Positions 5,427 through 64,000 of a stretch of DNA of 64,000 bases are shown one piece after another. This stretch comes from Escherichia coli (lineage in GTDB: Bacteria; Pseudomonadota; Gammaproteobacteria; Enterobacterales; Enterobacteriaceae). The DNA lies in the NCBI RefSeq assembly GCF_013315695.1, contig NZ_CP054353.1, one strand, 5' to 3'. The notes beneath the pieces are model-generated. The model saw nothing but the letters and a program-made list of their open reading frames with translations, was not told the origin of the DNA and searched no databases. Each line of letters opens with the position of its first letter. Within the stretch, counting starts at the first letter, position 1. Both the position numbers and the translations under genes were made by a program.

Positions 5427-8400
5427 CTATTCCCAATCCAGCCCTTGTGGCGAACTTGAAAATCCCGCCTCACGCAGCAGCGTAAACATCGGCGTTGGTC
5501 GGACTGGTAGATCATTCACTTCTGTCAGCGTAAAGCGCAGCCGTGGTTCGCGACGCAGTGCGGTAGTCAGCGCATGGAAAACCTCTGGGGCGAGTAATTC
5601 CTCTTTTTCCTGCCAGACCAGCATTTTTTTGCCACCTTGCGCCAGATAAAGTAACAATTTGCCGCCAGAAACGACCACCAGCGCACCCGCCCGACGCGTT
5701 GGAACCAGCGTTGCCGGATGTGCAGGCCAGGGCAGAAGACTTCCCCACACATTAGCCGGATCGTTGGCGGAGAGCGCCACTGGTGTATAGTGGCGCGTTT
5801 GCGCGGTTTGTGTCGCCAGGTCACGCAATCGGTCAATAGTCAGACGTTCAGCGAATTGCGCGCCACCCAGACCTTCTACAAAACGACCCCGCATAATTCG
5901 CCCGGAGTCTTCCATACTTCGACAAAGCGTTTGCATCGATGGAAAACCGCCAGGGATATTTTCGGCTATCACCGCCTGACGACTGATGATGCCGTAGCGG
6001 TCGAGCATATTTTCCGCCAGCGCCAGCATCCTTTCGGTATCGTTTAGTGGCTCCACCTGCAATAACGACCAGCGTCCGGCCAGCTTTGGTGTGTTGTAAG
6101 ATACCCGCGGCGAGACGGGTTGCGCATAGACAGGACGCCCACGACGAGCCCGGTGACTGCGGCGAGTTGAGGTGCGTGCGTTGGAACTGCTGCGGGTGAG
6201 GGCGCGTAACGGTGCCCAAATATCGCTGGTGATGACGCCTTGCCAGACCAGCGCCCATAACGCCTCTTGCAGTGCCGAGGGATCAACCGATTCGCCGATT
6301 TTATCGCGTATCCGTTGGCTGATTTGTTGTGCAAACCAGGCTCCTCCGTCAGCCAGAACAGCGACTATCGCTTGCTGCAGCGCCGAACGATTCGCCTGAT
6401 CCGCTTCGGCGGGAGTGAACGATTCTGCGGCATATTCCTGTAGATGCAGTGCCACCAGGCCGTCATCTTCACCCAGCTTTTTTTGTCCCGACCAGATAAC
6501 CGCTCCGGTTGCCAGTAATTCATCGAGCATTTCTGGCGAATAGTCGCGTACGCGGGCAGGCAGGATCTGGCTTTCCCAGAGTGAGGCGGGTAAACCGACT
6601 CCTGCAAGCTGTTCGATCACCCGCATCACGCCATCCACGCCCTCATAAACGCCTGGCGATGTTGAGGCAAAGAGTGCCGGGCTACCATCGGTGGCGGGTA
6701 ATACGCCCTGACGTTCCAGCAGCAATCGCGCATAGGTCGTGGCCGCAACGGGACGTGTCGCTTCTCTGGCGGCTTGCAGCGAGCGCAAACGCAGACGACG
6801 AAATACTTCATCGCTCACCCAGATGTCTTGTTGCAGATTCATCACCAGACCCTGTTCGCGCAGTTGCTGAAGTTGCTCTTCGACAATGGCAATACCGAGA
6901 CTAAACTCATGAGCCAGTTGTTCAGCCGTGACCAGAGCATGAGCCCGGAGATAGCGCAGAAAGAGGTCGCGAAGCGGGTAACTGACTCGGTGCAAATAAA
7001 TCTCTGGCAGTGACTCTGGTAGTCGTACGCCGAGGGCATCGCGCAGCCTGGCGGCATCATCCATACAGGCAAGACGCTCCTGCCCGCTAATCATCGTCGG
7101 GAAGATTCGTTTTACTGCAAGAAGATTTTCCAGATACGACGCAATCTCTTCACTGCTGCCTGTATGCCGTTGCGCCAGGTCTTCAACGGTCATTGGCCCC
7201 AGTTCGCGCAGCAGGTCGAACAATCCTTCTTCACCTTTCGCTCTTCTGCCAGGAGCCAGTCGTTGCAACTCTTCTTCCACCTGGCGAATGACCTGCGGGT
7301 CGAGTAATTCCCCCGGTTCGACCTGTCCGAGTAGATTGCGCAGTAACTCGCTGTCCAGCGACAGTACGGATGCCCGGCGCTCTGCCAGCGGGGCGTCGCT
7401 CTGGTACATAAATTCCGCGACATAGCCGAACAATAAACTGGCGGCGAAAGGCGAGGGCGTAGTGGTCGTTACATCGGATATTTGAATTTCGCCACCGTTC
7501 AGGCGACGCATCAAACGTTCCAGCGCGGGAAGATCATAAACATCTTGCAGACATTCGCGTAGGGTTTCGAGAATGACCGGAAAATCCGGATATCCCTGAG
7601 CGATTTCCAGCAACTGACTGGCGCGCAGTCGTTGTTGCCAGAGCGGGGTGCGATGGCCCGGCGTGCGGCCCGGCATTAATAATGCCCGCGCGGCGCATTC
7701 GCGAAAACGGGCGGCGAAAAGTGCCGAGCTGCCTACCGCCTCGCGGACAATTTGCAGCAACTTTTCTGGTTCAAACAAAAAAATCGCGGCATCAGGCAAT
7801 TTACCATCGGTGTCAGGAATGCGCGCAACAATGCCGTCATCACTGGCAACCACAGACGCGTCAGCGCCCCATAGTGCATGTATTCGCCCGGCAATCGCCA
7901 GCGCCCAGGGTTCATGCACCCGTCTTCCATAGGGAGAGTGCAAAATAATACGCCAGTCACCAATTTCATCACGGCACCGTTCGAGGACAAGATGACGACT
8001 ACCTGGAACGATACCCGTCGCGTTGCGCTGCTCGTCAATCAACCCCTGAATATTGGCGATCGTATTTTCTTCTGCCAACCACGGGGGAATAGTCCCGGAA
8101 AAGAACGCGCCATCCGCCAGTAAATGGAGAAAATCGCCGATCATCTCGCCTAATTCTGCCGGACGTCCGTTACCTTCACCACGCCAGAAGGGAAGGCGGG
8201 CAGAACGACCTGGAGCAGGAGTCACAATCACCTGATCGCGGGTGATTTGCTGGATCCGCCATGAGGTTGCGCCAAGAGTGATAATATCGTTCACCCGTGA
8301 CTCATATACCATCTCCTCATCCAGTTCACCCACCCGCCGCGAACCGGCCTGTTCTTCACCTTCGGGTAATAACACGCTATACATGCCACGATCCGGAATG

Positions 8401-29987: not shown

Positions 29988-32684
<2,697 letters not shown>

Positions 32685-41982: not shown

Positions 41983-42573
41983 ATGATGGATAACATGCAG
42001 ACTGAAGCACAACCGACACGGACCCGGATCCTCAATGCTGCCAGAGAGATTTTTTCAGAAAATGGATTTCACAGTGCCTCGATGAAAGCCATCTGTAAAT
42101 CTTGCGCCATTAGTCCCGGGACGCTCTATCACCATTTCATCTCCAAAGAAGCCCTGATTCAGGCGATTATCTTACAGGACCAGGAGAGGGCACTGGCCCG
42201 TTTCCGGGAACCGATTGAAGGGATTCATTTCGTTGACTATATGGTCGAGTCTATTGTCTCTCTCACCCATGAAGCCTTTGGGCAACGGGCGCTGGTGGTC
42301 GAAATTATGGCGGAAGGGATGCGCAACCCACAGGTCGCCGCCATGCTTAAAAATAAGCATATGACGATCACGGAATTTGTTGCCCAGCGGATGCGTGATG
42401 CCCAGCAAAAAGGCGAGATAAGCCCAGATATCAACACGGCAATGACTTCACGTTTACTGCTGGATCTGACCTACGGTGTACTGGCCGATATCGAAGCGGA
42501 AGATCTGGCGCGTGAAGCGTCGTTTGCTCAGGGATTACGCGCGATGATTGGCGGTATATTAACCGCATCCTGA
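41983..42573 (+). CDS. uidR: TetR-family repressor of the gus operon UidR
   Basis: 196-aa ORF with TetR HTH. Confidence 0.93.
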   Translation: MMDNMQTEAQPTRTRILNAAREIFSENGFHSASMKAICKSCAISPGTLYHHFISKEALIQAIILQDQERALARFREPIEGIHFVDYMVESIVSLTHEAFGQRALVVEIMAEGMRNPQVAAMLKNKHMTITEFVAQRMRDAQQKGEISPDINTAMTSRLLLDLTYGVLADIEAEDLAREASFAQGLRAMIGGILTAS

Positions 42574-42962: not shown

Positions 42963-45838
<2,876 letters not shown>

Positions 45839-45853
45839 GGTAATGACTCCAAC

Positions 45854-46357
45854 TTATTGATAGTGTTTTATGTTCAGATAATGCCCGATGACTTTGTCAT
45901 GCAGCTCCACCGATTTTGAGAACGACAGCGACTTCCGTCCCAGCCGTGCCAGGTGCTGCCTCAGATTCAGGTTATGCCGCTCAATTCGCTGCGTATATCG
46001 CTTGCTGATTACGTGCAGCTTTCCCTTCAGGCGGGATTCATACAGCGGCCAGCCATCCGTCATCCATATCACCACGTCAAAGGGTGACAGCAGGCTCATA
46101 AGACGCCCCAGCGTCGCCATAGTGCGTTCACCGAATACGTGCGCAACAACCGTCTTCCGGAGCCTGTCATACGCGTAAAACAGCCAGCGCTGGCGCGATT
46201 TAGCCCCGACATAGCCCCACTGTTCGTCCATTTCCGCGCAGACGATGACGTCACTGCCCGGCTGTATGCGCGAGGTTACCGACTGCGGCCTGAGTTTTTT
46301 AAGTGACGTAAAATCGTGTTGAGGCCAACGCCCATAATGCGGGCTGTTGCCCGGCAT
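45854..46357 (-). CDS. insB: IS1 transposase InsB
   Basis: 167-aa [61 protein letters not shown]... Confidence 0.95.
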
Positions 46358-46551
46358 CCAACGCCATTCATGGCCATATCAATGATTTTCTGGTGCGTAC
46401 CGGGTTGAGAAGCGGTGTAAGTGAACTGCAGTTGCCATGTTTTACGGCAGTGAGAGCAGAGATAGCGCTGATGTCCGGCGGTGCTTTTGCCGTTACGCAC
46501 CACCCCGTCAGTAGCTGAACAGGAGGGACAGCTGATAGAAACAGAAGCCAC
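46276..46551 (-). CDS. insA: IS1 InsA
   Basis: 91-aa [46 protein letters not shown]... Confidence 0.95.
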
Positions 46552-46606
46552 TGGAGCACCTCAAAAACACCATCATACACTAAATCAGTAAGTTGGCAGC
46601 ATCACC

Positions 46607-47310
46607 TTCGTGATGAAGGGGTGTATAACAGCCAGACGGGAAAATACGATAAACATCGCGCACGTTCTTTTTTAGCCGCCAGTTGGCATGATGATACCAG
46701 TCGCTATTCTCTGGGGGCATCGGTACAGAAAGATGTTTCCAATCAGTTACAAAGTATTCTCGAGAAAAGCATACCGCTCGACCCGAATTATACGTTGAAA
46801 GGGGAGTTGCTCGGCTTTTACGCGCAACTTGAAGGTTTAAGTCGTAATACCAGCCAGCCCAATGAAACGGCGTTAGTTAGTGGACAATTGACCTGGAATG
46901 CGCCGTGGGGAAGCGTATTTGGCAGTGGTGGTTATTTGCGCCATGCAATGAATGGTGCCGTGGTGGATACCGACATTGGCTATCCCTTTTCATTAAGTCT
47001 TGATCGTAACCGTGAAGGAATGCAGTCCTGGCAATTGGGCGTCAACTATCGTTTAACTCCGCAATTTACGCTGACATTTGCACCGATTGTGACCCGCGGC
47101 TATGAATCCAGTAAACGAGATGTGCGGATTGAAGGCGCGGGTATCTTAGGGGGTATGAACTATCGGGTCAGCGAAGGGCCGTTACAAGGGATGAATTTCT
47201 TTCTTGCTGCCGATAAAGGGCGGGAAAAGCGCGATGGCAGTGCGCTGGGCGATCGCCTGAATTACTGGGATGTGAAAATGAGTATTCAGTATGACTTTAT
47301 GCTGAAGTAA
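46607..47310 (+). pseudogene. uidC: Outer-membrane glucuronide porin uidC, 5'-truncated (C-terminal ~230 codons remain)
   Basis: 229-aa ORF starts immediately after IS1; beta-strand-rich sequence ending ...YDFMLK; position between uidB and ydgA. Confidence 0.7.
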
Positions 47311-47319
47311 GAAAAAAAT

Positions 47320-47346
47320 GCCGGAGAGAAAAATCTCCGGCGTTTT
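47320..47346. terminator. Bidirectional hairpin between convergent uidC and ydgA
   Basis: gccggagag-aaaaa-tctccggc followed by gtttt, preceded by A-run. Confidence 0.6.
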
Positions 47347-52004: not shown

Positions 52005-53430
52005 TAATGCCGATCAGTTAAGGATCAGTTGACCGATCCAGTGGCTGTGTAAGAATCCGGAAACGCTCACTTGTTTCCGGATTTTTTTATGCACATTGGA
52101 CAGGCTCTTGATCTGGTATCCCGTTACGATTCTCTGCGTAACCCACTGACTTCTCTGGGGGATTACCTCGACCCCGAACTCATCTCTCGTTGCCTTGCCG
52201 AATCAGGTACTGTAACGCTACGCAAGCGCCGTCTTCCCCTCGAAATGATGGTCTGGTGTATTGTTGGCATGGCGCTTGAGCGTAAAGAACCTCTTCACCA
52301 GATTGTGAATCGCCTGGACATCATGCTGCCGGGCAATCGCCCCTTCGTTGCCCCCAGTGCCGTTATTCAGGCCCGCCAGCGCCTGGGAAGTGAGGCTGTC
52401 CGCCGCGTGTTCACGAAAACAGCGCAGCTCTGGCATAACGCCACGCCGCATCCGCACTGGTGCGGCCTGACCCTGCTGGCCATCGATGGTGTGTTCTGGC
52501 GCACACCGGATACACCAGAGAACGATGCAGCCTTCCCCCGCCAGACACATGCCGGGAACCCGGCGCTCTACCCGCAGGTCAAAATGGTCTGCCAGATGGA
52601 ACTGACCAGCCATCTGCTGACGGCTGCAGCCTTCGGCACGATGAAGAACAGCGAAAATGAGCTTGCTGAGCAACTTATAGAACAAACCGGCGATAACACT
52701 CTGACGTTAATGGATAAAGGTTATTACTCACTGGGACTGTTAAATGCCTGGAGCCTGGCGGGAGAACACCGCCACTGGATGATACCTCTCAGAAAGGGAG
52801 CGCAATATGAAGAGATCAGAAAACTGGGTAAAGGCGATCATCTGGTGAAGCTGAAAACCAGCCCGCAGGCACGAAAAAAGTGGCCGGGACTGGGAAATGA
52901 AGTGACAGCCCGCCTGCTGACCGTGACGCGCAAAGGAAAAGTCTGCCATCTGCTGACGTCGATGACGGACGCCATGCGCTTCCCCGGAGGAGAAATGGCG
53001 GATCTGTACAGTCATCGCTGGGAAATCGAACTGGGATACAGGGAGATAAAACAGACGATGCAACTGAGCAGGCTGACGCTGAGAAGTAAAAAACCGGAGC
53101 TTGTGGAGCAAGAGCTGTGGGGTGTCTTACTGGCTTATAATCTGGTGAGATATCAGATGATTAAAATGGCGGAACATCTGAAAGGTTACTGGCCGAATCA
53201 ACTGAGTTTCTCAGAATCATGCGGAATGGTGATGAGAATGCTGATGACATTGCAGGGCGCTTCACCGGGACGTATACCGGAGCTGATGCGCGATCTTGCA
53301 AGTATGGGACAACTTGTGAAATTACCGACAAGAAGGGAAAGGGCCTTCCCGAGAGTGGTAAAGGAGAGGCCCTGGAAATACCCCACAGCCCCGAAAAAGA
53401 GCCAGTCAGTTGCTTAACTGACTGGCATTA
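52005..53430 (+). mobile_element. IS4 copy 1 (1426 bp), no target-site duplication
   Basis: 18-bp imperfect terminal inverted repeats TAATGCCGATCAGTTAAGG / CCTTAACTGACTGGCATTA; flanks ccgcccttcgggg vs gtccccagggaga differ. Confidence 0.93.
52089..53417 (+). CDS. insG: IS4 transposase (DDE, IS4 family)
   Basis: [66 protein letters not shown]...; identical to the ORF in copy 2. Confidence 0.93.
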
Positions 53431-56149: not shown

Positions 56150-56240
56150 TAGACTGGCCCCCTGAATCTCCAGACAACCAGTATCACTTATTTAAGTGAT
56201 AGTCTTAATACTAGTTTTTAGACTAGTCATTGGAGAGCAG

Positions 56241-56606
56241 ATGATTGATGTCTTAGGACCGGAGAAACGCAGACGGCGTACCACACAGGAAAAGATCGCA
56301 ATTGTTCAGCAGAGCTTTGAACCGGGGATGACGGTCTCCCTCGTTGCCCGGCAACATGGTGTAGCAGCCAGCCAGTTATTTCTCTGGCGTAAGCAATACC
56401 AGGAAGGAAGTCTTACTGCTGTCGCCGCCGGAGAACAGGTTGTTCCTGCCTCTGAACTTGCTGCCGCCATGAAGCAGATTAAAGAACTCCAGCGCCTGCT
56501 CGGCAAGAAAACGATGGAAAATGAACTCCTCAAAGAAGCCGTTGAATATGGACGGGCAAAAAAGTGGATAGCGCACGCGCCCTTATTGCCCGGGGATGGG
56601 GAGTAA
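56241..56606 (+). CDS. insC: IS2 InsC (OrfA)
   Basis: [56 protein letters not shown]... Confidence 0.93.
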
Positions 56607-57469
56607 GCTTAGTCAGCCGTTGTCTCCGGGTGTCGCGTGCGCAGTTGCACGTCATTCTCAGACGAACCGATGACTGGATGGATGGCCGCCGCAGTCGTCA
56701 CACTGATGATACGGATGTGCTTCTCCGTATACACCATGTTATCGGAGAGCTGCCCACGTATGGTTATCGTCGGGTATGGGCGCTGCTTCGCAGACAGGCA
56801 GAACTTGATGGTATGCCTGCGATCAATGCCAAACGTGTTTACCGGATCATGCGCCAGAATGCGCTGTTGCTTGAGCGAAAACCTGCTGTACCGCCATCGA
56901 AACGGGCACATACAGGCAGAGTGGCCGTGAAAGAAAGCAATCAGCGATGGTGCTCTGACGGGTTCGAGTTCTGCTGTGATAACGGAGAGAGACTGCGTGT
57001 CACGTTCGCGCTGGACTGCAGTGATCGTGAGGCACTGCACTGGGCGGTCACTACCGGCGGCTTCAACAGTGAAACAGTACAGGACGTCATGCTGGGAGCG
57101 GTGGAACGCCGCTTCGGCAACGATCTTCCGTCGTCTCCAGTGGAGTGGCTGACGGATAATGGTTCATGCTACCGGGCTAATGAAACACGCCAGTTCGCCC
57201 GGATGTTGGGACTTGAACCGAAGAACACGGCGGTGCGGAGTCCGGAGAGTAACGGAATAGCAGAGAGCTTCGTGAAAACGATAAAGCGTGACTACATCAG
57301 TATCATGCCCAAACCAGACGGGTTAACGGCAGCAAAGAACCTTGCAGAGGCGTTCGAGCATTATAACGAATGGCATCCGCATAGTGCGCTGGGTTATCGC
57401 TCGCCACGGGAATATCTGCGGCAGCGGGCTTGTAATGGGTTAAGTGATAACAGATGTCTGGAAATATAG
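56564..57469 (+). CDS. insD: IS2 transposase InsD (OrfB, expressed by -1 frameshift from insC)
   Basis: 301-aa ORF overlapping the insC 3' end in the -1 frame; DDE integrase-type sequence. Confidence 0.93.
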
Positions 57470-57480
57470 GGGCAAATCCA

Positions 57481-58125
57481 AAATGCCGACTGACTGTCTG
57501 TGCGCATCCAATGACTAAAGGGAACATTAAGCGTAAAAGCGAGTAAATGATCCCGATCGTTTTGCCATATATTATTGGAATAGCTGTAATTCAGCGAAGT
57601 CGTAATATCACTAAACGGCACATTTAATCCAAATGATATTTGCTGGTCGCTGCGTGACGTGTTCCAGTAACTTTGGCGACTGGCACTGAAAAATGTCGTA
57701 CCGTAATTTCCAAGCTGCTGAGAGATGCTTATTTGTTCCTGACCACGCTTACTGTAGAACAGATTAAAATAATCAATAAATTGTGTCTGCTCATTGCTGT
57801 CTCCGGTAGGAGGCTTGACGGTGTAACCACTCATTCGACTGTAGGCACTGTCGGATAAGTTATAAAAACCTTGCGTAGAATAGCGATATCCTGCGACCTG
57901 GATATTGGTTCCCGTCTGGTAGAAGGATTTGCTGTAGACGGATTTAATCGATTGCCCGCTGTGACGGGTGCCATCTGCAAGTGTCGTATTGGCCTGCGTG
58001 ATATCGAAAGAAAAGGCACCAAAAAGTCCTAAATCTTTACCAATACCAAGGTTGAAGGCCTGATAATCTTCTGCAATTTGCATTCCGCCATAAGGCGTCC
58101 AGTTTCCTTCCAGTCCATGCATCAA
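57481..58125 (-). pseudogene. ydeT: Fimbrial usher internal fragment (ydeT-like); N-terminal part of the usher absent
   Basis: ORF 57394..58125 is usher-like until it runs into IS2; together with 55350..56149 about 480 codons, roughly half of a full usher; upstream is AT-rich non-coding. Confidence 0.65.
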
Positions 58126-58506
58126 GTCATTCTGTTATTGCTTATAAAACAAGAATCATTCTTGATGGGATATTGCCCTGAGAATATAGTTTCCAGGGTT
58201 ATTACATTTCACGAAGAACGATAATATCTTTAAATTACAAGGACACCTAATCACAACAAGTTTATTGCAGCACTTGTTGTAGAGAGTATTTGCAAAGACA
58301 TTTTATGTCGCTAAATAACATGACGATTTCATTATGCATGTTATTTATAAACCGTGACTAAACAGAATATTATTGCGAACAAGGGAAGTGTCAGGAAAGG
58401 TCAAGAGCGACCAATGGTTTATATGGCTATAAATCATTAGCTATAGTTAATGTTTGCCTGGTGTAACTAACACGGAATTGCTCTAAACAGATAAGTGCAG
58501 GGTTTA

Positions 58507-58761
58507 TTAAAGCTGACCGACAGACTTTCTTAACCTGGTAATATCTCTCTTAGGTGACTCTCCAAACATCCGCGAATATTCCCGACTGAAATGGGATAAG
58601 CTTTCGTAACCGACAACATAGGCTGCAGTGGTGACATCGTAATGTTCATTCAGCATCAGTCGCCTGGCTTCATTGAGGCGTAGCCATTTCTGATACCGGA
58701 GTGGACTCATTCCCGCAAGCTGTATGAAGTGTTGATGGAAAGAGGGGGTGTTCATTTGCAC
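58507..58761 (-). pseudogene. yneL: AraC-family regulator C-terminal HTH fragment (yneL-like)
   Basis: 84-aa ORF with AraC-type second HTH (...YVVGYESLSHFSREYSRMFGESPKR...); no intact N-terminal domain upstream. Confidence 0.6.
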
Positions 58762-59150
58762 GCGGTTTGCCAGCCTGACTCTTCAACGCAGGGAAGATGC
58801 GGCAAACGGCAAACCTGCATACCAGCCAGCCTATATCCGGTATGCACAGGCCAATCATGAAAGAGGAGAGGCTTTATGTTCTGGAACCCTGAAGTAATAA
58901 CGACGACCGGAAAATCGCTTCGCATCACTCAAATCACATTTAACATAATATACATTATGCGCACCAACATAAACCAAGGAAGAATCCAGTCGTTGGCGGT
59001 CATGATTGTCGTGCTCATTAATAACGACCAAACCCCATATTAACTGCCGCATCAAAAACGCCATGATCCGCGCGATGCCTGGGCCTCCATCTGATTCATG
59101 AAAGTGACAACGGTCTGGCATAACGGCTGGCTAACCACTCCGGTGCATAC

Positions 59151-61119
59151 TTAAAGGTGTGCGCGCCGTTGGCTAACTTCGTTAAGTTCGCCGGTCACGT
59201 TTTTTAGCGTTAACAGACCGTCACTAGCAATATTTCCTCTGCCTAACCCCTGCGTATTGTCGAGGCTGACTTCCGCATTTGGGCTAATGCTGGTTAACGC
59301 ATTGTAGCGTGCATTAAGCCCCTCGATAGCCAGTGTTCCCCCTGTAACATTCAGGTTTCCGCCACCTGTCAGTTCGCCCTGACTGATCCCACCTTTATTC
59401 ACCGTCAGCGAACCTTCTTTGAACAAAACAGTCGAACCCATCAGCCCGGTGAATGTCTCCACCGTCTGGGCCGATCCATTAAGATCGACGATGGCCGCGT
59501 TGCTGATGTTCAGTTCCCGGGTGTTGCCCAGCGCGCCATCCGCATCGGTACGTAATGTCCCCATCTGAACATAGGTTGCCCCCTGATAGTCGTTCTGACC
59601 GTTGGAAAGCGAAACCTGTCGCACCGTATTGATTGCCAGATCCCCTTCACCACCGATTTTTGCCGACATATCGGCCGTTGCGCCATAGGCTCCGCCATGT
59701 TCGGCTAACGTCAGCTTTTGCCCTCCATGGATGTTCAGCGCTTTCAGCCCATAGTTAACGTACAAACCATCACCTGGTGCGGTCGTGAGGCGGAATCCAT
59801 AATCACCCTCGGCGACCACCGTTCCGTTTTGCGCAATGTGTAACGTTTTGTCCGCTTCCACCTCGTCGCCCTGTAAATCACGTAACGTTAATGAGCCACC
59901 CGACCCAATAACCGTTTGCGCCTTCACCAGTTGAACGCCGACATGGCTATCATCGTGTTCCAGCAAATTGAGCGTCGTCAGAGGGTTATTCGCCATGGGA
60001 TCATTCCACGGTTTAGGCACGTCGATAAGCACGTCGCCCGTCCCGTTTACCTGATAGTTACGGCCTTTCCAGGTGTAGTCACCCGCGCCGACAACCAGCG
60101 TATCGACGCTGATATATCCCTCTGCAAGCGTCGCAGCAGGAATATCCGTATCGAAAATGAGCGTACCGCCATTCATGGCCAGTCCACCAATGGATTGCTC
60201 TCCCACTTTTACCGATGTGGTATTTTCACTGTCAGACTGCAACATCGCGTGAGTAAGCGCAGCGGTGTTGTCGCGTTCCAGAGTGAAGGTACTGTCTTTC
60301 AGTTGGGCAACACCGGCGAATTCAGTCCCTGTTGCATGGGTAAAGCCAAATATCTTGTCGGAGGATGACAGCTGCACTCGCATCAAGCCATCGCCTTTGA
60401 GCGCATTGGTCAGCGTGTAATCTCCTGCGCTGTTCGTTGATGCGAGAATGTCGAGCGTACCGGGGCTTGCAATGGTGACTTCACTCGAACCCATGCCTGT
60501 TACCCCATCTGCCGTATGTGACGCAATAGTCAGGAGGCCGTCATTGACCAGCGTTTTACCGCTATAAGTATTCCCTGCATTGAACACCGTATGGCCTGCA
60601 TCATGCATCACTTTTCCGTCTTTATCGTCACCCGTAATCAGCATATCGACCTGGTAGCCGGCATCACTGTTATTGGTATGATTAAAGACAAAAACGCCTT
60701 CGCCAAGACCAAACTCCACTTTCGTCGCATTGGTAATAAACCCGGCATCTGCCGCCACCTCACCGTGAGCAGCACCAATGTTTAGCGTTCCTACAGCAGG
60801 CTCAAAAACACCTAAGTAAACTTCTCCACCTTCGACATTCAGCGTGCCGTTATTCGTCAGGGTTAACGTACCTGTGCCAGTCGTCCCTACGTTCATATTG
60901 AATGTTTCAAGAAGAGAGTTCTGCCCATCCACCCGCACGTCGCCCTTACTTTTGTCATTCAGAGCTATCTGTGTATCACGCGCTTTAACTATACCTCCGG
61001 TGGTAATATTCAGTTCACCCGTACCTAATACACCGACCTGTAGCAATTGGGCGTTAGTAGATGACGTTTTTAAATTCCAGAGACTATCCGTTGAAATATT
61101 AACTATCCCCTTACCGGAG
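59151..61119 (-). pseudogene. AIDA-I-like autotransporter adhesin passenger domain, C-proximal part (no beta-barrel translocator follows)
   Basis: ORF 59151..61046 (631 aa), Gly/Thr/Asn-rich beta-helix-type repeats (TGTGTLTLTNNGTLNVEGG...); ends ...EVSQRRAHL without a barrel domain. Confidence 0.7.
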
Positions 61120-62545
61120 TAATGCCGATCAGTTAAGGATCAGTTGACCGATCCAGTGGCTGTGTAAGAATCCGGAAACGCTCACTTGTTTCCGGATTTT
61201 TTTATGCACATTGGACAGGCTCTTGATCTGGTATCCCGTTACGATTCTCTGCGTAACCCACTGACTTCTCTGGGGGATTACCTCGACCCCGAACTCATCT
61301 CTCGTTGCCTTGCCGAATCAGGTACTGTAACGCTACGCAAGCGCCGTCTTCCCCTCGAAATGATGGTCTGGTGTATTGTTGGCATGGCGCTTGAGCGTAA
61401 AGAACCTCTTCACCAGATTGTGAATCGCCTGGACATCATGCTGCCGGGCAATCGCCCCTTCGTTGCCCCCAGTGCCGTTATTCAGGCCCGCCAGCGCCTG
61501 GGAAGTGAGGCTGTCCGCCGCGTGTTCACGAAAACAGCGCAGCTCTGGCATAACGCCACGCCGCATCCGCACTGGTGCGGCCTGACCCTGCTGGCCATCG
61601 ATGGTGTGTTCTGGCGCACACCGGATACACCAGAGAACGATGCAGCCTTCCCCCGCCAGACACATGCCGGGAACCCGGCGCTCTACCCGCAGGTCAAAAT
61701 GGTCTGCCAGATGGAACTGACCAGCCATCTGCTGACGGCTGCAGCCTTCGGCACGATGAAGAACAGCGAAAATGAGCTTGCTGAGCAACTTATAGAACAA
61801 ACCGGCGATAACACTCTGACGTTAATGGATAAAGGTTATTACTCACTGGGACTGTTAAATGCCTGGAGCCTGGCGGGAGAACACCGCCACTGGATGATAC
61901 CTCTCAGAAAGGGAGCGCAATATGAAGAGATCAGAAAACTGGGTAAAGGCGATCATCTGGTGAAGCTGAAAACCAGCCCGCAGGCACGAAAAAAGTGGCC
62001 GGGACTGGGAAATGAAGTGACAGCCCGCCTGCTGACCGTGACGCGCAAAGGAAAAGTCTGCCATCTGCTGACGTCGATGACGGACGCCATGCGCTTCCCC
62101 GGAGGAGAAATGGCGGATCTGTACAGTCATCGCTGGGAAATCGAACTGGGATACAGGGAGATAAAACAGACGATGCAACTGAGCAGGCTGACGCTGAGAA
62201 GTAAAAAACCGGAGCTTGTGGAGCAAGAGCTGTGGGGTGTCTTACTGGCTTATAATCTGGTGAGATATCAGATGATTAAAATGGCGGAACATCTGAAAGG
62301 TTACTGGCCGAATCAACTGAGTTTCTCAGAATCATGCGGAATGGTGATGAGAATGCTGATGACATTGCAGGGCGCTTCACCGGGACGTATACCGGAGCTG
62401 ATGCGCGATCTTGCAAGTATGGGACAACTTGTGAAATTACCGACAAGAAGGGAAAGGGCCTTCCCGAGAGTGGTAAAGGAGAGGCCCTGGAAATACCCCA
62501 CAGCCCCGAAAAAGAGCCAGTCAGTTGCTTAACTGACTGGCATTA
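61120..62545 (+). mobile_element. IS4 copy 2 (1426 bp) with perfect 13-bp target-site duplication
   Basis: Same terminal repeats as copy 1; ccccttaccggag at 61107..61119 and 62546..62558. Confidence 0.95.
61204..62532 (+). CDS. insG: IS4 transposase
   Basis: Translation identical to copy 1. Confidence 0.93.
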
Positions 62546-64000
62546 CCCCTTACCGGAGGCATTTCCTCCGATAAATCCATAGCCCGTTGAATTAAGGGTG
62601 GCACCATTACTGACATTTACGATGCCGCTACCAAAATTACCGACATTGATACCTACAGTATCGAACGATGATGTCGCATCCATCAGGTTCAGTGTGCCGA
62701 TACCGCTTGCTTTATCGCCCAAAAAAGTAATATTTTGCGATACGAACTTACCGCCATCGCTGATATTGAGGTTTCCGACGCCCGCTACACCAATGGTGGT
62801 ATAGACATTCTTATTGACCTCCCATATCCCCCCCGTGGTGATGCTAACCTTCCCGACGCCGGTTTCTCCATAACCGAGTGAACTTCCTCCGTTGCTGACA
62901 ACAAGCCCCTCATTACTGATATTCATTTCGCCGTGGCCGTCATAACCAAGATTAGTTCCGAGATTAGTGATAACGGAGTTCTTATCCTTAACAGTAATGT
63001 TGCCTGTGCCTGTTTCTTTCATCCCCGCAGTGATAATTCCCGAATCTACTTTGCCTTCACTAGAGACATTAAGTTCACCGTCGCCAGCATCACCGATATA
63101 GATATAGCGGAAAGCTTCGCCCGTTCCGAGGAAATTCCAATGCCCTTTATCGGTCACGTTGACGACACCGTGGGAACCGTCCTGAACGCCCACCAATGAA
63201 TATTCTTTGTTATTAATCAGTCCATTATTGGAAATATTGACTTTGCCATTACCGAAATATCCATTATAGAGTCTGCGTACCGTGATGACAGAGTCTTGAT
63301 CCTGCACATTCAGGGTTCCGATACCGGTGGCATTGCCTCCGATAATCGTATTTTCAGCCGTAATTAGCCCACCCTCGCGAATAGTCGCTTCCCCAGTTCC
63401 TTGATTACCAATTTGAAATTCAATTGAGGAATCGTTATTTTTTATTAGCCACTCACCGCCCTTTTCAACGACAACCTTACCATTACTGTTCGCTTGATAT
63501 CCTACAGTGGCGACTATTGAACTCGTGACGTAACCCTTATCCGTAATATTTAATGAGCCCGTACCGTAACTCCCTATTTCGAATAATTCGGTCGTCAGAA
63601 CCGAGTCCTCTCCCTCAACATTAACCGTCCCGACGCCTCCTGTCGAAGAACCTATCCTTAAATATCCTCCGTCAACGTGACCCTTCTGTTTAATATTCAG
63701 CGTCCCCGTTCCGGATTGACCCACATTTAAAGGCCTTGCATTATTTCCGCTATCATACAATCGCCAGGTGCCACCCAAAACATTAACGGTGCCCTCCGAG
63801 TCCTCATTACCACCAATGACGCTGGTAGTAATAGTGGTTAAGGAGGCATTACCGCCAGCCAAAATATTAAGCACTCCAGTGCCATACCACCCAACCAGGT
63901 AGGCATCGTAAGCAACATCAGTATTAATATTGGTAATCTGACCATTATCAACTTCCAGACTCGCACCAGACGCTGAACCGCTTAGTGCCAGCAAAACACC
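62546..64000 (-). pseudogene. AIDA-I-like autotransporter passenger domain, N-proximal part (continues beyond window end)
   Basis: ORF 62543..63994 (483 aa) with repetitive G/N/T-rich motifs (GTGTLNIKQKGHVDGG..., GTGEATIREGG...); stop lies 3 nt inside IS4 copy 2. Confidence 0.7.

Follow-up and report, generated by a model that had tools for sequence, protein, structure and literature searches.

An IS1-mediated deletion across uidB and uidC in a lineage of Escherichia coli, and repeated IS1 insertion at a site in uidC

Bacterial insertion sequences of the IS1 family leave a short target-site duplication when they insert, and its absence around an otherwise complete copy calls for an explanation. 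Such a copy separates the truncated remnants of uidB and uidC in the 64-kb window analysed here, a contiguous stretch of Escherichia coli DNA whose whole length is meant wherever the window is mentioned. At the element, uidB lacks its 3' quarter and uidC the 5' 44% of its length, and this structure was almost certainly produced by an IS1-mediated deletion of 901 bp, not by simple insertion. The deletion as such is nothing out of the ordinary, as the process is already known from textbooks, and the RefSeq annotation flags partial and frameshifted pseudogenes beside the IS1. Only modestly new are the base-precise hot spot for IS1 in uidC and the recurrence of independent uidB-uidC deletions in other strains; no paper on either was found, and a literature search for IS1 in uidB or uidC returned nothing relevant, only incidental mentions.

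The IS1 element and the missing 901 bp

The gene order hdhA-uidR-uidA-uidB-uidC-ydgA is preserved in the window, with 97.7-98.2% identity to K-12 and collinearity except at the lesions described here, in agreement with the annotation of the related genome MSB1_4I. The element between uidB and uidC is a complete, IS1A-type IS1 of 768 bp at window positions 45839..46606 on the minus strand, and its transposase is read opposite to the direction of the uid operon. Its length and its imperfect terminal inverted repeats of about 23 bp are those of the family. Both repeats are exact matches, IRR GGTAATGACTCCAACTTATTGAT at 45839..45861 on the plus strand and IRL GGTGATGCTGCCAACTTACTGAT at 46584..46606 on the minus strand, and neither is found a second time in the 64 kb, where 0 occurrences would be expected by chance. 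Both coding frames of the family are found as well: insA (46276..46551, minus strand), an open frame of 91 aa whose 3' end holds the A6C -1 frameshift site, and the insB' frame (45854..46357, minus strand), which the list of open reading frames and its translation give as open over 167 aa. The slippery A6C motif TTAAAAAAC lies at element position 304. The copy is 100% identical to that of MSB1_4I, which PGAP labels there as 'IS1A family transposase, programmed frameshift'.

On its left side the element abuts the 9-mer CGGCGTGCG (45830..45838), which corresponds to K-12 uidB nt 1065-1073, and on its right side the 9-mer TTCGTGATG (46607..46615), which corresponds to uidC nt 563-571 and is the target duplicated by simple IS1 insertions elsewhere. 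Read across the element, the sequence runs ...CCTGACCGGCGTGCG, then IS1, then TTCGTGATGAAGGGG; at greater length the left flank ends in ...GACCGGCGTGCG and the right flank begins with TTCGTGATGAAGG. The 9-mers are alike at 1 of 9 positions, and there is no target-site duplication of 8-9 bp. This is expected of an IS1 copy that has since mediated a deletion, and it counts against a simple insertion and not against the identification of the element as IS1. The breakpoints are exact: the reference has an A after the left junction and an A before the right one, and because both differ from the terminal bases of IS1, neither breakpoint can be shifted. Assembly error does not account for the structure, since both junctions recur unchanged in two complete genomes that are independent of each other. 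A simple insertion whose duplication had been misread was considered and rejected, as 8 of the 9 positions do not match and 901 bp are gone. The first-pass annotation of the window, made from the sequence alone, had given the coordinates of the element and the flanking 9-mers correctly, and its reading of an absent duplication holds, with no repeat of 8-9 bp found on the two sides of IS1.

Alignment to K-12 MG1655 gives a loss of exactly 901 bp, as does alignment to strain MS 21-1, the nearest relative with an intact locus. The lost interval comprises uidB nt 1074-1374 (301 nt), the 38-bp spacer and uidC nt 1-562. What is left of uidB is its 5' portion, nt 1-1073 of 1374 (357 codons and 2 nt), at 44766..45838 on the plus strand, and its open frame continues for 7 codons inside IS1 to end at 45860. 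The remnant of uidC, at 46607..47310 on the plus strand, consists of nt 563-1266, that is, the last 233 codons and the stop; the first 187 codons are gone from it, and with them the start codon and the signal peptide, and it bears the PGAP tag 'missing N-terminus' in MSB1_4I. The earlier estimates that uidB ends at codon 357 of 457, that uidC keeps its last ~230 codons and that ~0.8-0.9 kb were deleted agree with these alignments. Both endpoints of the deletion coincide to the base with the termini of IS1 while the element itself is intact, as is the case in adjacent deletions.

No copy of the missing 901 bp exists elsewhere in the 64-kb window. To follow the segment in other genomes, a comparison set of 5,426 complete E. 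coli genomes was used, with the MS 21-1 version as query; as this is the distinctive haplotype of the lineage, lineage-mates should rank first. The matches listed are headed by MS 21-1, OZ546925 and OZ546911 at 99.9-100%, unrelated strains reach at most 99.6%, and MSB1_4I and OZ547117 are absent among them. Per genome, the segment is found in at most 2 places (median 1) across the 5,426 genomes, of which 107-108 (~2%) are without the interval. In MSB1_4I and OZ547117 the segment, judged from these matches, appears to have been lost and not relocated. The first-pass annotation had named intact uidB and uidC elsewhere as a finding that would overturn its reading; relocation was looked for and rejected, no displaced copy being found within the window or listed for MSB1_4I or OZ547117.

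Closest relatives and IS1 junctions in other strains

Of the 5,426 complete E. coli genomes, MSB1_4I and OZ547117 alone have the left junction, and both carry the entire structure as one collinear piece. The window differs from MSB1_4I by 4 mismatches in 14.7 kb, plus a rearrangement at an IS2. Both genomes are IS1-rich, with at least 40 matching places each. When the two flanks were searched separately, the flank haplotype of the window was found in three intact genomes, MS 21-1, OZ546925 and OZ546911. The first of these shows 2-4 mismatches per 5-7 kb relative to the window and has a neighbouring IS4 in common with it; its uidA, uidB and uidC are intact and free of IS1, and this intact locus represents the ancestral state within the lineage. 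No intermediate allele was found among the complete genomes of the lineage, the site being empty in MS 21-1, OZ546925 and OZ546911.

The right junction is more widespread, being common to 8 other genomes. In FDAARGOS_943, 3908, AVS0223 and 22272 it belongs to a simple IS1 insertion in the same orientation, with TTCGTGATG on both sides of the element; AVS0051, 22872 and 23753 have a hit pattern like that of AVS0223 and 22272, the two genomes of this group that base-by-base inspection covered. The junction between IS1 and uidC and the orientation of these simple insertions (FDAARGOS_943, 3908 and the AVS0223/22272 group) are identical to those of the window, but the strains keep the left copy of TTCGTGATG, the whole of uidB and the 5' half of uidC, which the window does not. 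A left-copy junction of this kind in uidC would read CCGGTATTCGTGATG joined to GGTAATGACTCC. Strain 1506 has the same right junction and is without uidC nt ~293-562 leftward of it (K-12rc 7442-7711 deleted), which is an independent event of the same type that started at the same site.

The IS1 copies at the uidC site differ from that of the window at 1, 2, 27 or 41 of 768 positions, and the flanks of the strains depart from those of the window no farther than 14-141 bp from the junction, with an overall divergence of 1-2.5%. Because both the IS1 copies and the flank haplotypes differ, these cases do not descend from one inherited insertion, and the target has been used at least five times: TTCGTGATG was hit by IS1, in one orientation, in at least five distinct haplotype and IS1-variant backgrounds, in four of them by simple insertions that duplicated 9 bp. 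Direct ancestry of the window allele in any of these strains was rejected on the same grounds, the divergent flanks and, in some of them, the IS1 variants (27-41 of 768) marking them as parallel events. The 9-mer, at uidC codons ~188-190, is very probably a site- and orientation-specific hot spot for IS1. Upstream of it in uidC lies the tract TATTTTTATGG. According to an old idea in the IS1 literature, targets resemble the ends of IS1. Homology of this kind, examined for both the uidC and the uidB target, was rejected as a cause of the hot spot, the best ungapped match being 7/12, a value matched or exceeded by ~90% of windows drawn at random from this locus. Searches of the literature on IS1 hot spots and IHF gave results mostly on IS10.

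The uidB junction of the window falls within a small cluster of independent IS1 junctions at K-12rc 6804, 6810 and 6815. In 2017.03.02CC a simple insertion with the duplication TGCGAATTG lies 5 bp from it. A junction 6 bp from it is carried by 2018-01-1CC and three genomes of like hit pattern, and in 2018-01-1CC this junction is joined to a 952-bp deletion that reaches uidC nt 607 (K-12rc 6805-7756). At the uidB site of the window, a right-copy junction of a simple insertion would read GCATCACC joined to CGGCGTGCGAATAGAAGG. The window's own 9-mer in uidB, CGGCGTGCG, is 8/9 G+C, and a 9-mer of this composition is an atypical IS1 target, which weighs against the two-step route favoured below.

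Further IS1 alleles of the region comprise a uidB-to-uidC deletion of ~0.86 kb in ET650 (K-12rc ~6860-7717), the loss of the 3' end of uidB in F8, a simple insertion within uidB in N54, an IS1 in the spacer together with an IS5 in uidC in EC2001, and two IS1 copies inside uidB-uidC in EC-107, which are opposite in orientation and occupy positions other than the window's. Among the matches listed, some 20 more genomes carry, on that strand, an end of IS1 no farther than ~0.5 kb from the site. Further independent IS1-associated deletions in uidB or uidC are found in at least four unrelated E. coli, strain 1506, 2018-01-1CC, ET650 and F8. That this recurrent, convergent IS1-mediated loss, with at least four deletion alleles, reflects selection against the transporter or porin and not neutral decay is conceivable, but we consider it unlikely. 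The uidC hot spot and the recurrent deletions could serve as a natural target for the study of IS1 site choice.

Routes to the deletion

Among the routes by which IS1 could have produced the deletion, we favour, with moderate confidence, one of two steps, a simple insertion followed by an intramolecular transposition attack. First, IS1 would have inserted in the usual manner, duplicating 9 bp, where one of the two junctions now lies. The likelier place is the uidC target TTCGTGATG, because it is a demonstrable hot spot at which simple insertions and the strain 1506 deletion are observed. In the second step, the resident copy would attack, by intramolecular replicative transposition, a second target on its own chromosome, at a distance of 0.9 kb, and the DNA in between would be excised with one of the IS1 copies as a non-replicating circle and then lost. 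It follows from this route that the surviving copy would have one old and one new flank, with no duplication. The order of events, the identity of the older junction and the intramolecular route are all inferred from the alleles at hand, the two-step order because the nearest relatives MS 21-1, OZ546925 and OZ546911 carry no IS1 at the site; should IS1 choose its targets alike in inter- and intramolecular transposition, insertion in uidC and then attack on uidB has the same prior as the reverse. Intramolecular target-primed transposition is known to give deletions that start exactly at the terminus of the element and end at a chosen, variable target, and IS1/Tn9 is a documented case (PMC9330008). 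In evolving E. coli, absent duplications have been traced mostly to adjacent deletion or to recombination between IS copies (PMC11708052). Another study (PMC12428005) gives IS1 duplications as 8-9 bp, with reference to Grindley 1978 for the 9-bp duplication and to Turlan & Chandler 1995 for replicative deletions by IS1.

A possible, though in our view doubtful, alternative is that two simple IS1 insertions of the same orientation, one in uidB at CGGCGTGCG and one in uidC at TTCGTGATG, were followed by RecA-dependent recombination between the 768-bp copies, which deleted the interval and one of the copies. The sequence product of such recombination is identical to that of a strict adjacent deletion, and is the one observed. 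Both places are prone to IS1, the uidC 9-mer having been hit at least five times and the uidB cluster at 6804/6810/6815 three times; the lineage is rich in the element, as the figures for MSB1_4I and OZ547117 show, and inter-IS recombination is a frequent cause of missing duplications (PMC11708052). Three events are needed, however, as opposed to two, and the exact uidB junction occurs without the deletion in 0 genomes of the collection. Two IS1 copies inside uidB-uidC do coexist in EC-107, but they are opposite in orientation and elsewhere in position. The first-pass annotation had proposed an IS1-mediated adjacent deletion; of this, the deletion by IS1 is supported, whereas its intramolecular sense is inseparable by sequence from recombination between two IS1 copies.

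Insertion and deletion could also have coincided in one step, the ends of an incoming IS1 being joined to targets 901 bp apart, or the insertion being associated with a break, in either case without a duplication. Some IS movements have been proposed to coincide with a large rearrangement and to leave no duplication (PMC11708052), and the lineage has yielded no intermediate. In the same study, however, all 14 LTEE cases were stepwise, insertion being followed by adjacent deletion, and the right junction of the window is the exact boundary of the normal 9-bp staggered target of simple insertions, as ordinary transposition chemistry predicts; a one-step origin is accordingly rated improbable. 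A decayed duplication of a simple insertion, an assembly artefact or removal of the missing DNA to another place by rearrangement is hardly tenable, given that 901 bp of the reference are absent between the flanks, that two independently assembled complete genomes have the identical structure, and that the segment, which is at 99.9-100% in three intact relatives and in no more than 2 places per genome (median 1 in 5,426 genomes), is neither elsewhere in the window nor among the matches listed for MSB1_4I and OZ547117.

The favoured sequence of insertion and later adjacent deletion has counterparts in known systems. With the adjacent deletions of IS1/Tn9, from which it does not differ in kind, the window shares the exact start at the IS1 terminus, the intact element, the lack of a 9-bp duplication, a flank like that of simple insertions (seen here in other lineages) and a size, ~1 kb, within the usual range. 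Those deletions were selected in the laboratory, whereas the event in the window is reconstructed from natural genomes and its route is inseparable from inter-IS1 recombination. The gal deletions studied by Reif and Saedler were reportedly of the IS1 adjacent type. For clinical E. coli, PMC12428005 cites Wan et al. 2023 on IS1-related chromosomal deletions, such as loss of the nfsB region. These deletions resemble the window in having IS1 at the deletion point and in the loss of a chromosomal function in natural isolates, but they are large and nitrofurantoin-selected, whereas that of the window is 0.9 kb, is confined to one operon and shows no obvious sign of a selecting agent.

The rest of the uid operon and other elements in the window

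The repressor gene uidR (41983..42573, plus strand; 196 aa; WP_000969092.1 in MSB1_4I) is intact, as the first-pass annotation had it, and its protein is identical in K-12, MS 21-1 and the window. The uidR-uidA intergenic region differs from that of MS 21-1 by one base. The beta-glucuronidase gene uidA (42963..44769, plus strand) is a pseudogene, annotated by PGAP as 'frameshifted' in MSB1_4I. The frameshift, which had been noticed in the first reading of the sequence, results from a 5-bp deletion between window positions 43369 and 43370 (uidA nt ~408-412) that turns K-12 GTGAACAACGAACTGAACTGG into GTGAACAATGAACTGG; the bases removed are CGAAC, within GAACAACGAACTGAAC. The frame is lost after ~residue 136 and the gene is split into open reading frames at 42963..43412 and 43369..44769. 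Only the window, MSB1_4I and OZ547117 carry this lesion, the match span of the latter two being 3239 bp where that of the intact relatives is 3244 bp; it is absent from MS 21-1, OZ546925 and OZ546911. The uidA deletion and the IS1 deletion co-occur in one sublineage, and neither is found in its nearest relatives.

Translated, the remnants would give a UidB without its last 100 residues and a UidC that lacks start codon and signal peptide and is 187 residues short at its N-terminus. In 12-helix symporters of the GPH family, the last 100 residues of UidB should cover the last transmembrane helices. Because the loss in uidB and uidC is combined with a separate frameshift in uidA, the whole operon for glucuronide uptake and hydrolysis is probably non-functional, and UidR would remain without a target; the earlier view that all three structural genes are dead is in keeping with the uidA frameshift and the two truncations. 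On the strength of the gene sequences, the source of the window, MSB1_4I and OZ547117 are predicted to be beta-glucuronidase-negative and incapable of glucuronide uptake, and detection of E. coli with MUG or X-gluc would be expected to score the sublineage as negative. Decay of the uid genes has been described in O157:H7, with a frameshift in uidA, and in O55:H7 group 1, with a truncation of uidB (PMC9413875). As in the window, the inactivation is specific to a lineage and the predicted phenotype is negative for beta-glucuronidase or for uptake, but the lesions differ, being an insertion in O157 and a point mutation in O55 as opposed to the 5-bp uidA deletion and the IS1-mediated deletion of the window. 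The window adds to the cases in which IS elements have turned genes into pseudogenes in a lineage of E. coli rich in such elements.

Several other features of the window were recorded. In the spacer between uidC and ydgA (~47315..47345), ~150 bp of K-12 and K-12-like strains are absent here and in several other lineages, a difference that may be a polymorphism of a small repetitive extragenic element. An IS4 of 1426 bp at 52005..53430 has no target duplication and joins the region downstream of a class I fumarase gene to a truncated ydeQ-like fimbrial gene. In MS 21-1 the IS4 at that position is followed by fumC, which indicates an IS4-associated inversion or deletion of ~100 kb (on the K-12 scale) between the window and MS 21-1. 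A second IS4, at 61120..62545, is a simple insertion with the 13-bp duplication CCCCTTACCGGAG and interrupts an ECSE_1600-type autotransporter gene. An IS2 of 1331 bp at 56150..57480, with the 5-bp duplication AAATG, lies inside the fimbrial usher gene ydeT and marks the breakpoint of the rearrangement between the window and MSB1_4I: window positions 1-57466 correspond to MSB1_4I 2727600-2670135 on the minus strand, and positions 57300-64000 to MSB1_4I 2582300-2589000 on the plus strand. Within rsxC (~30037..30458), offset self-matches reveal internal tandem repeats with a period of ~96 bp and ~90% identity.
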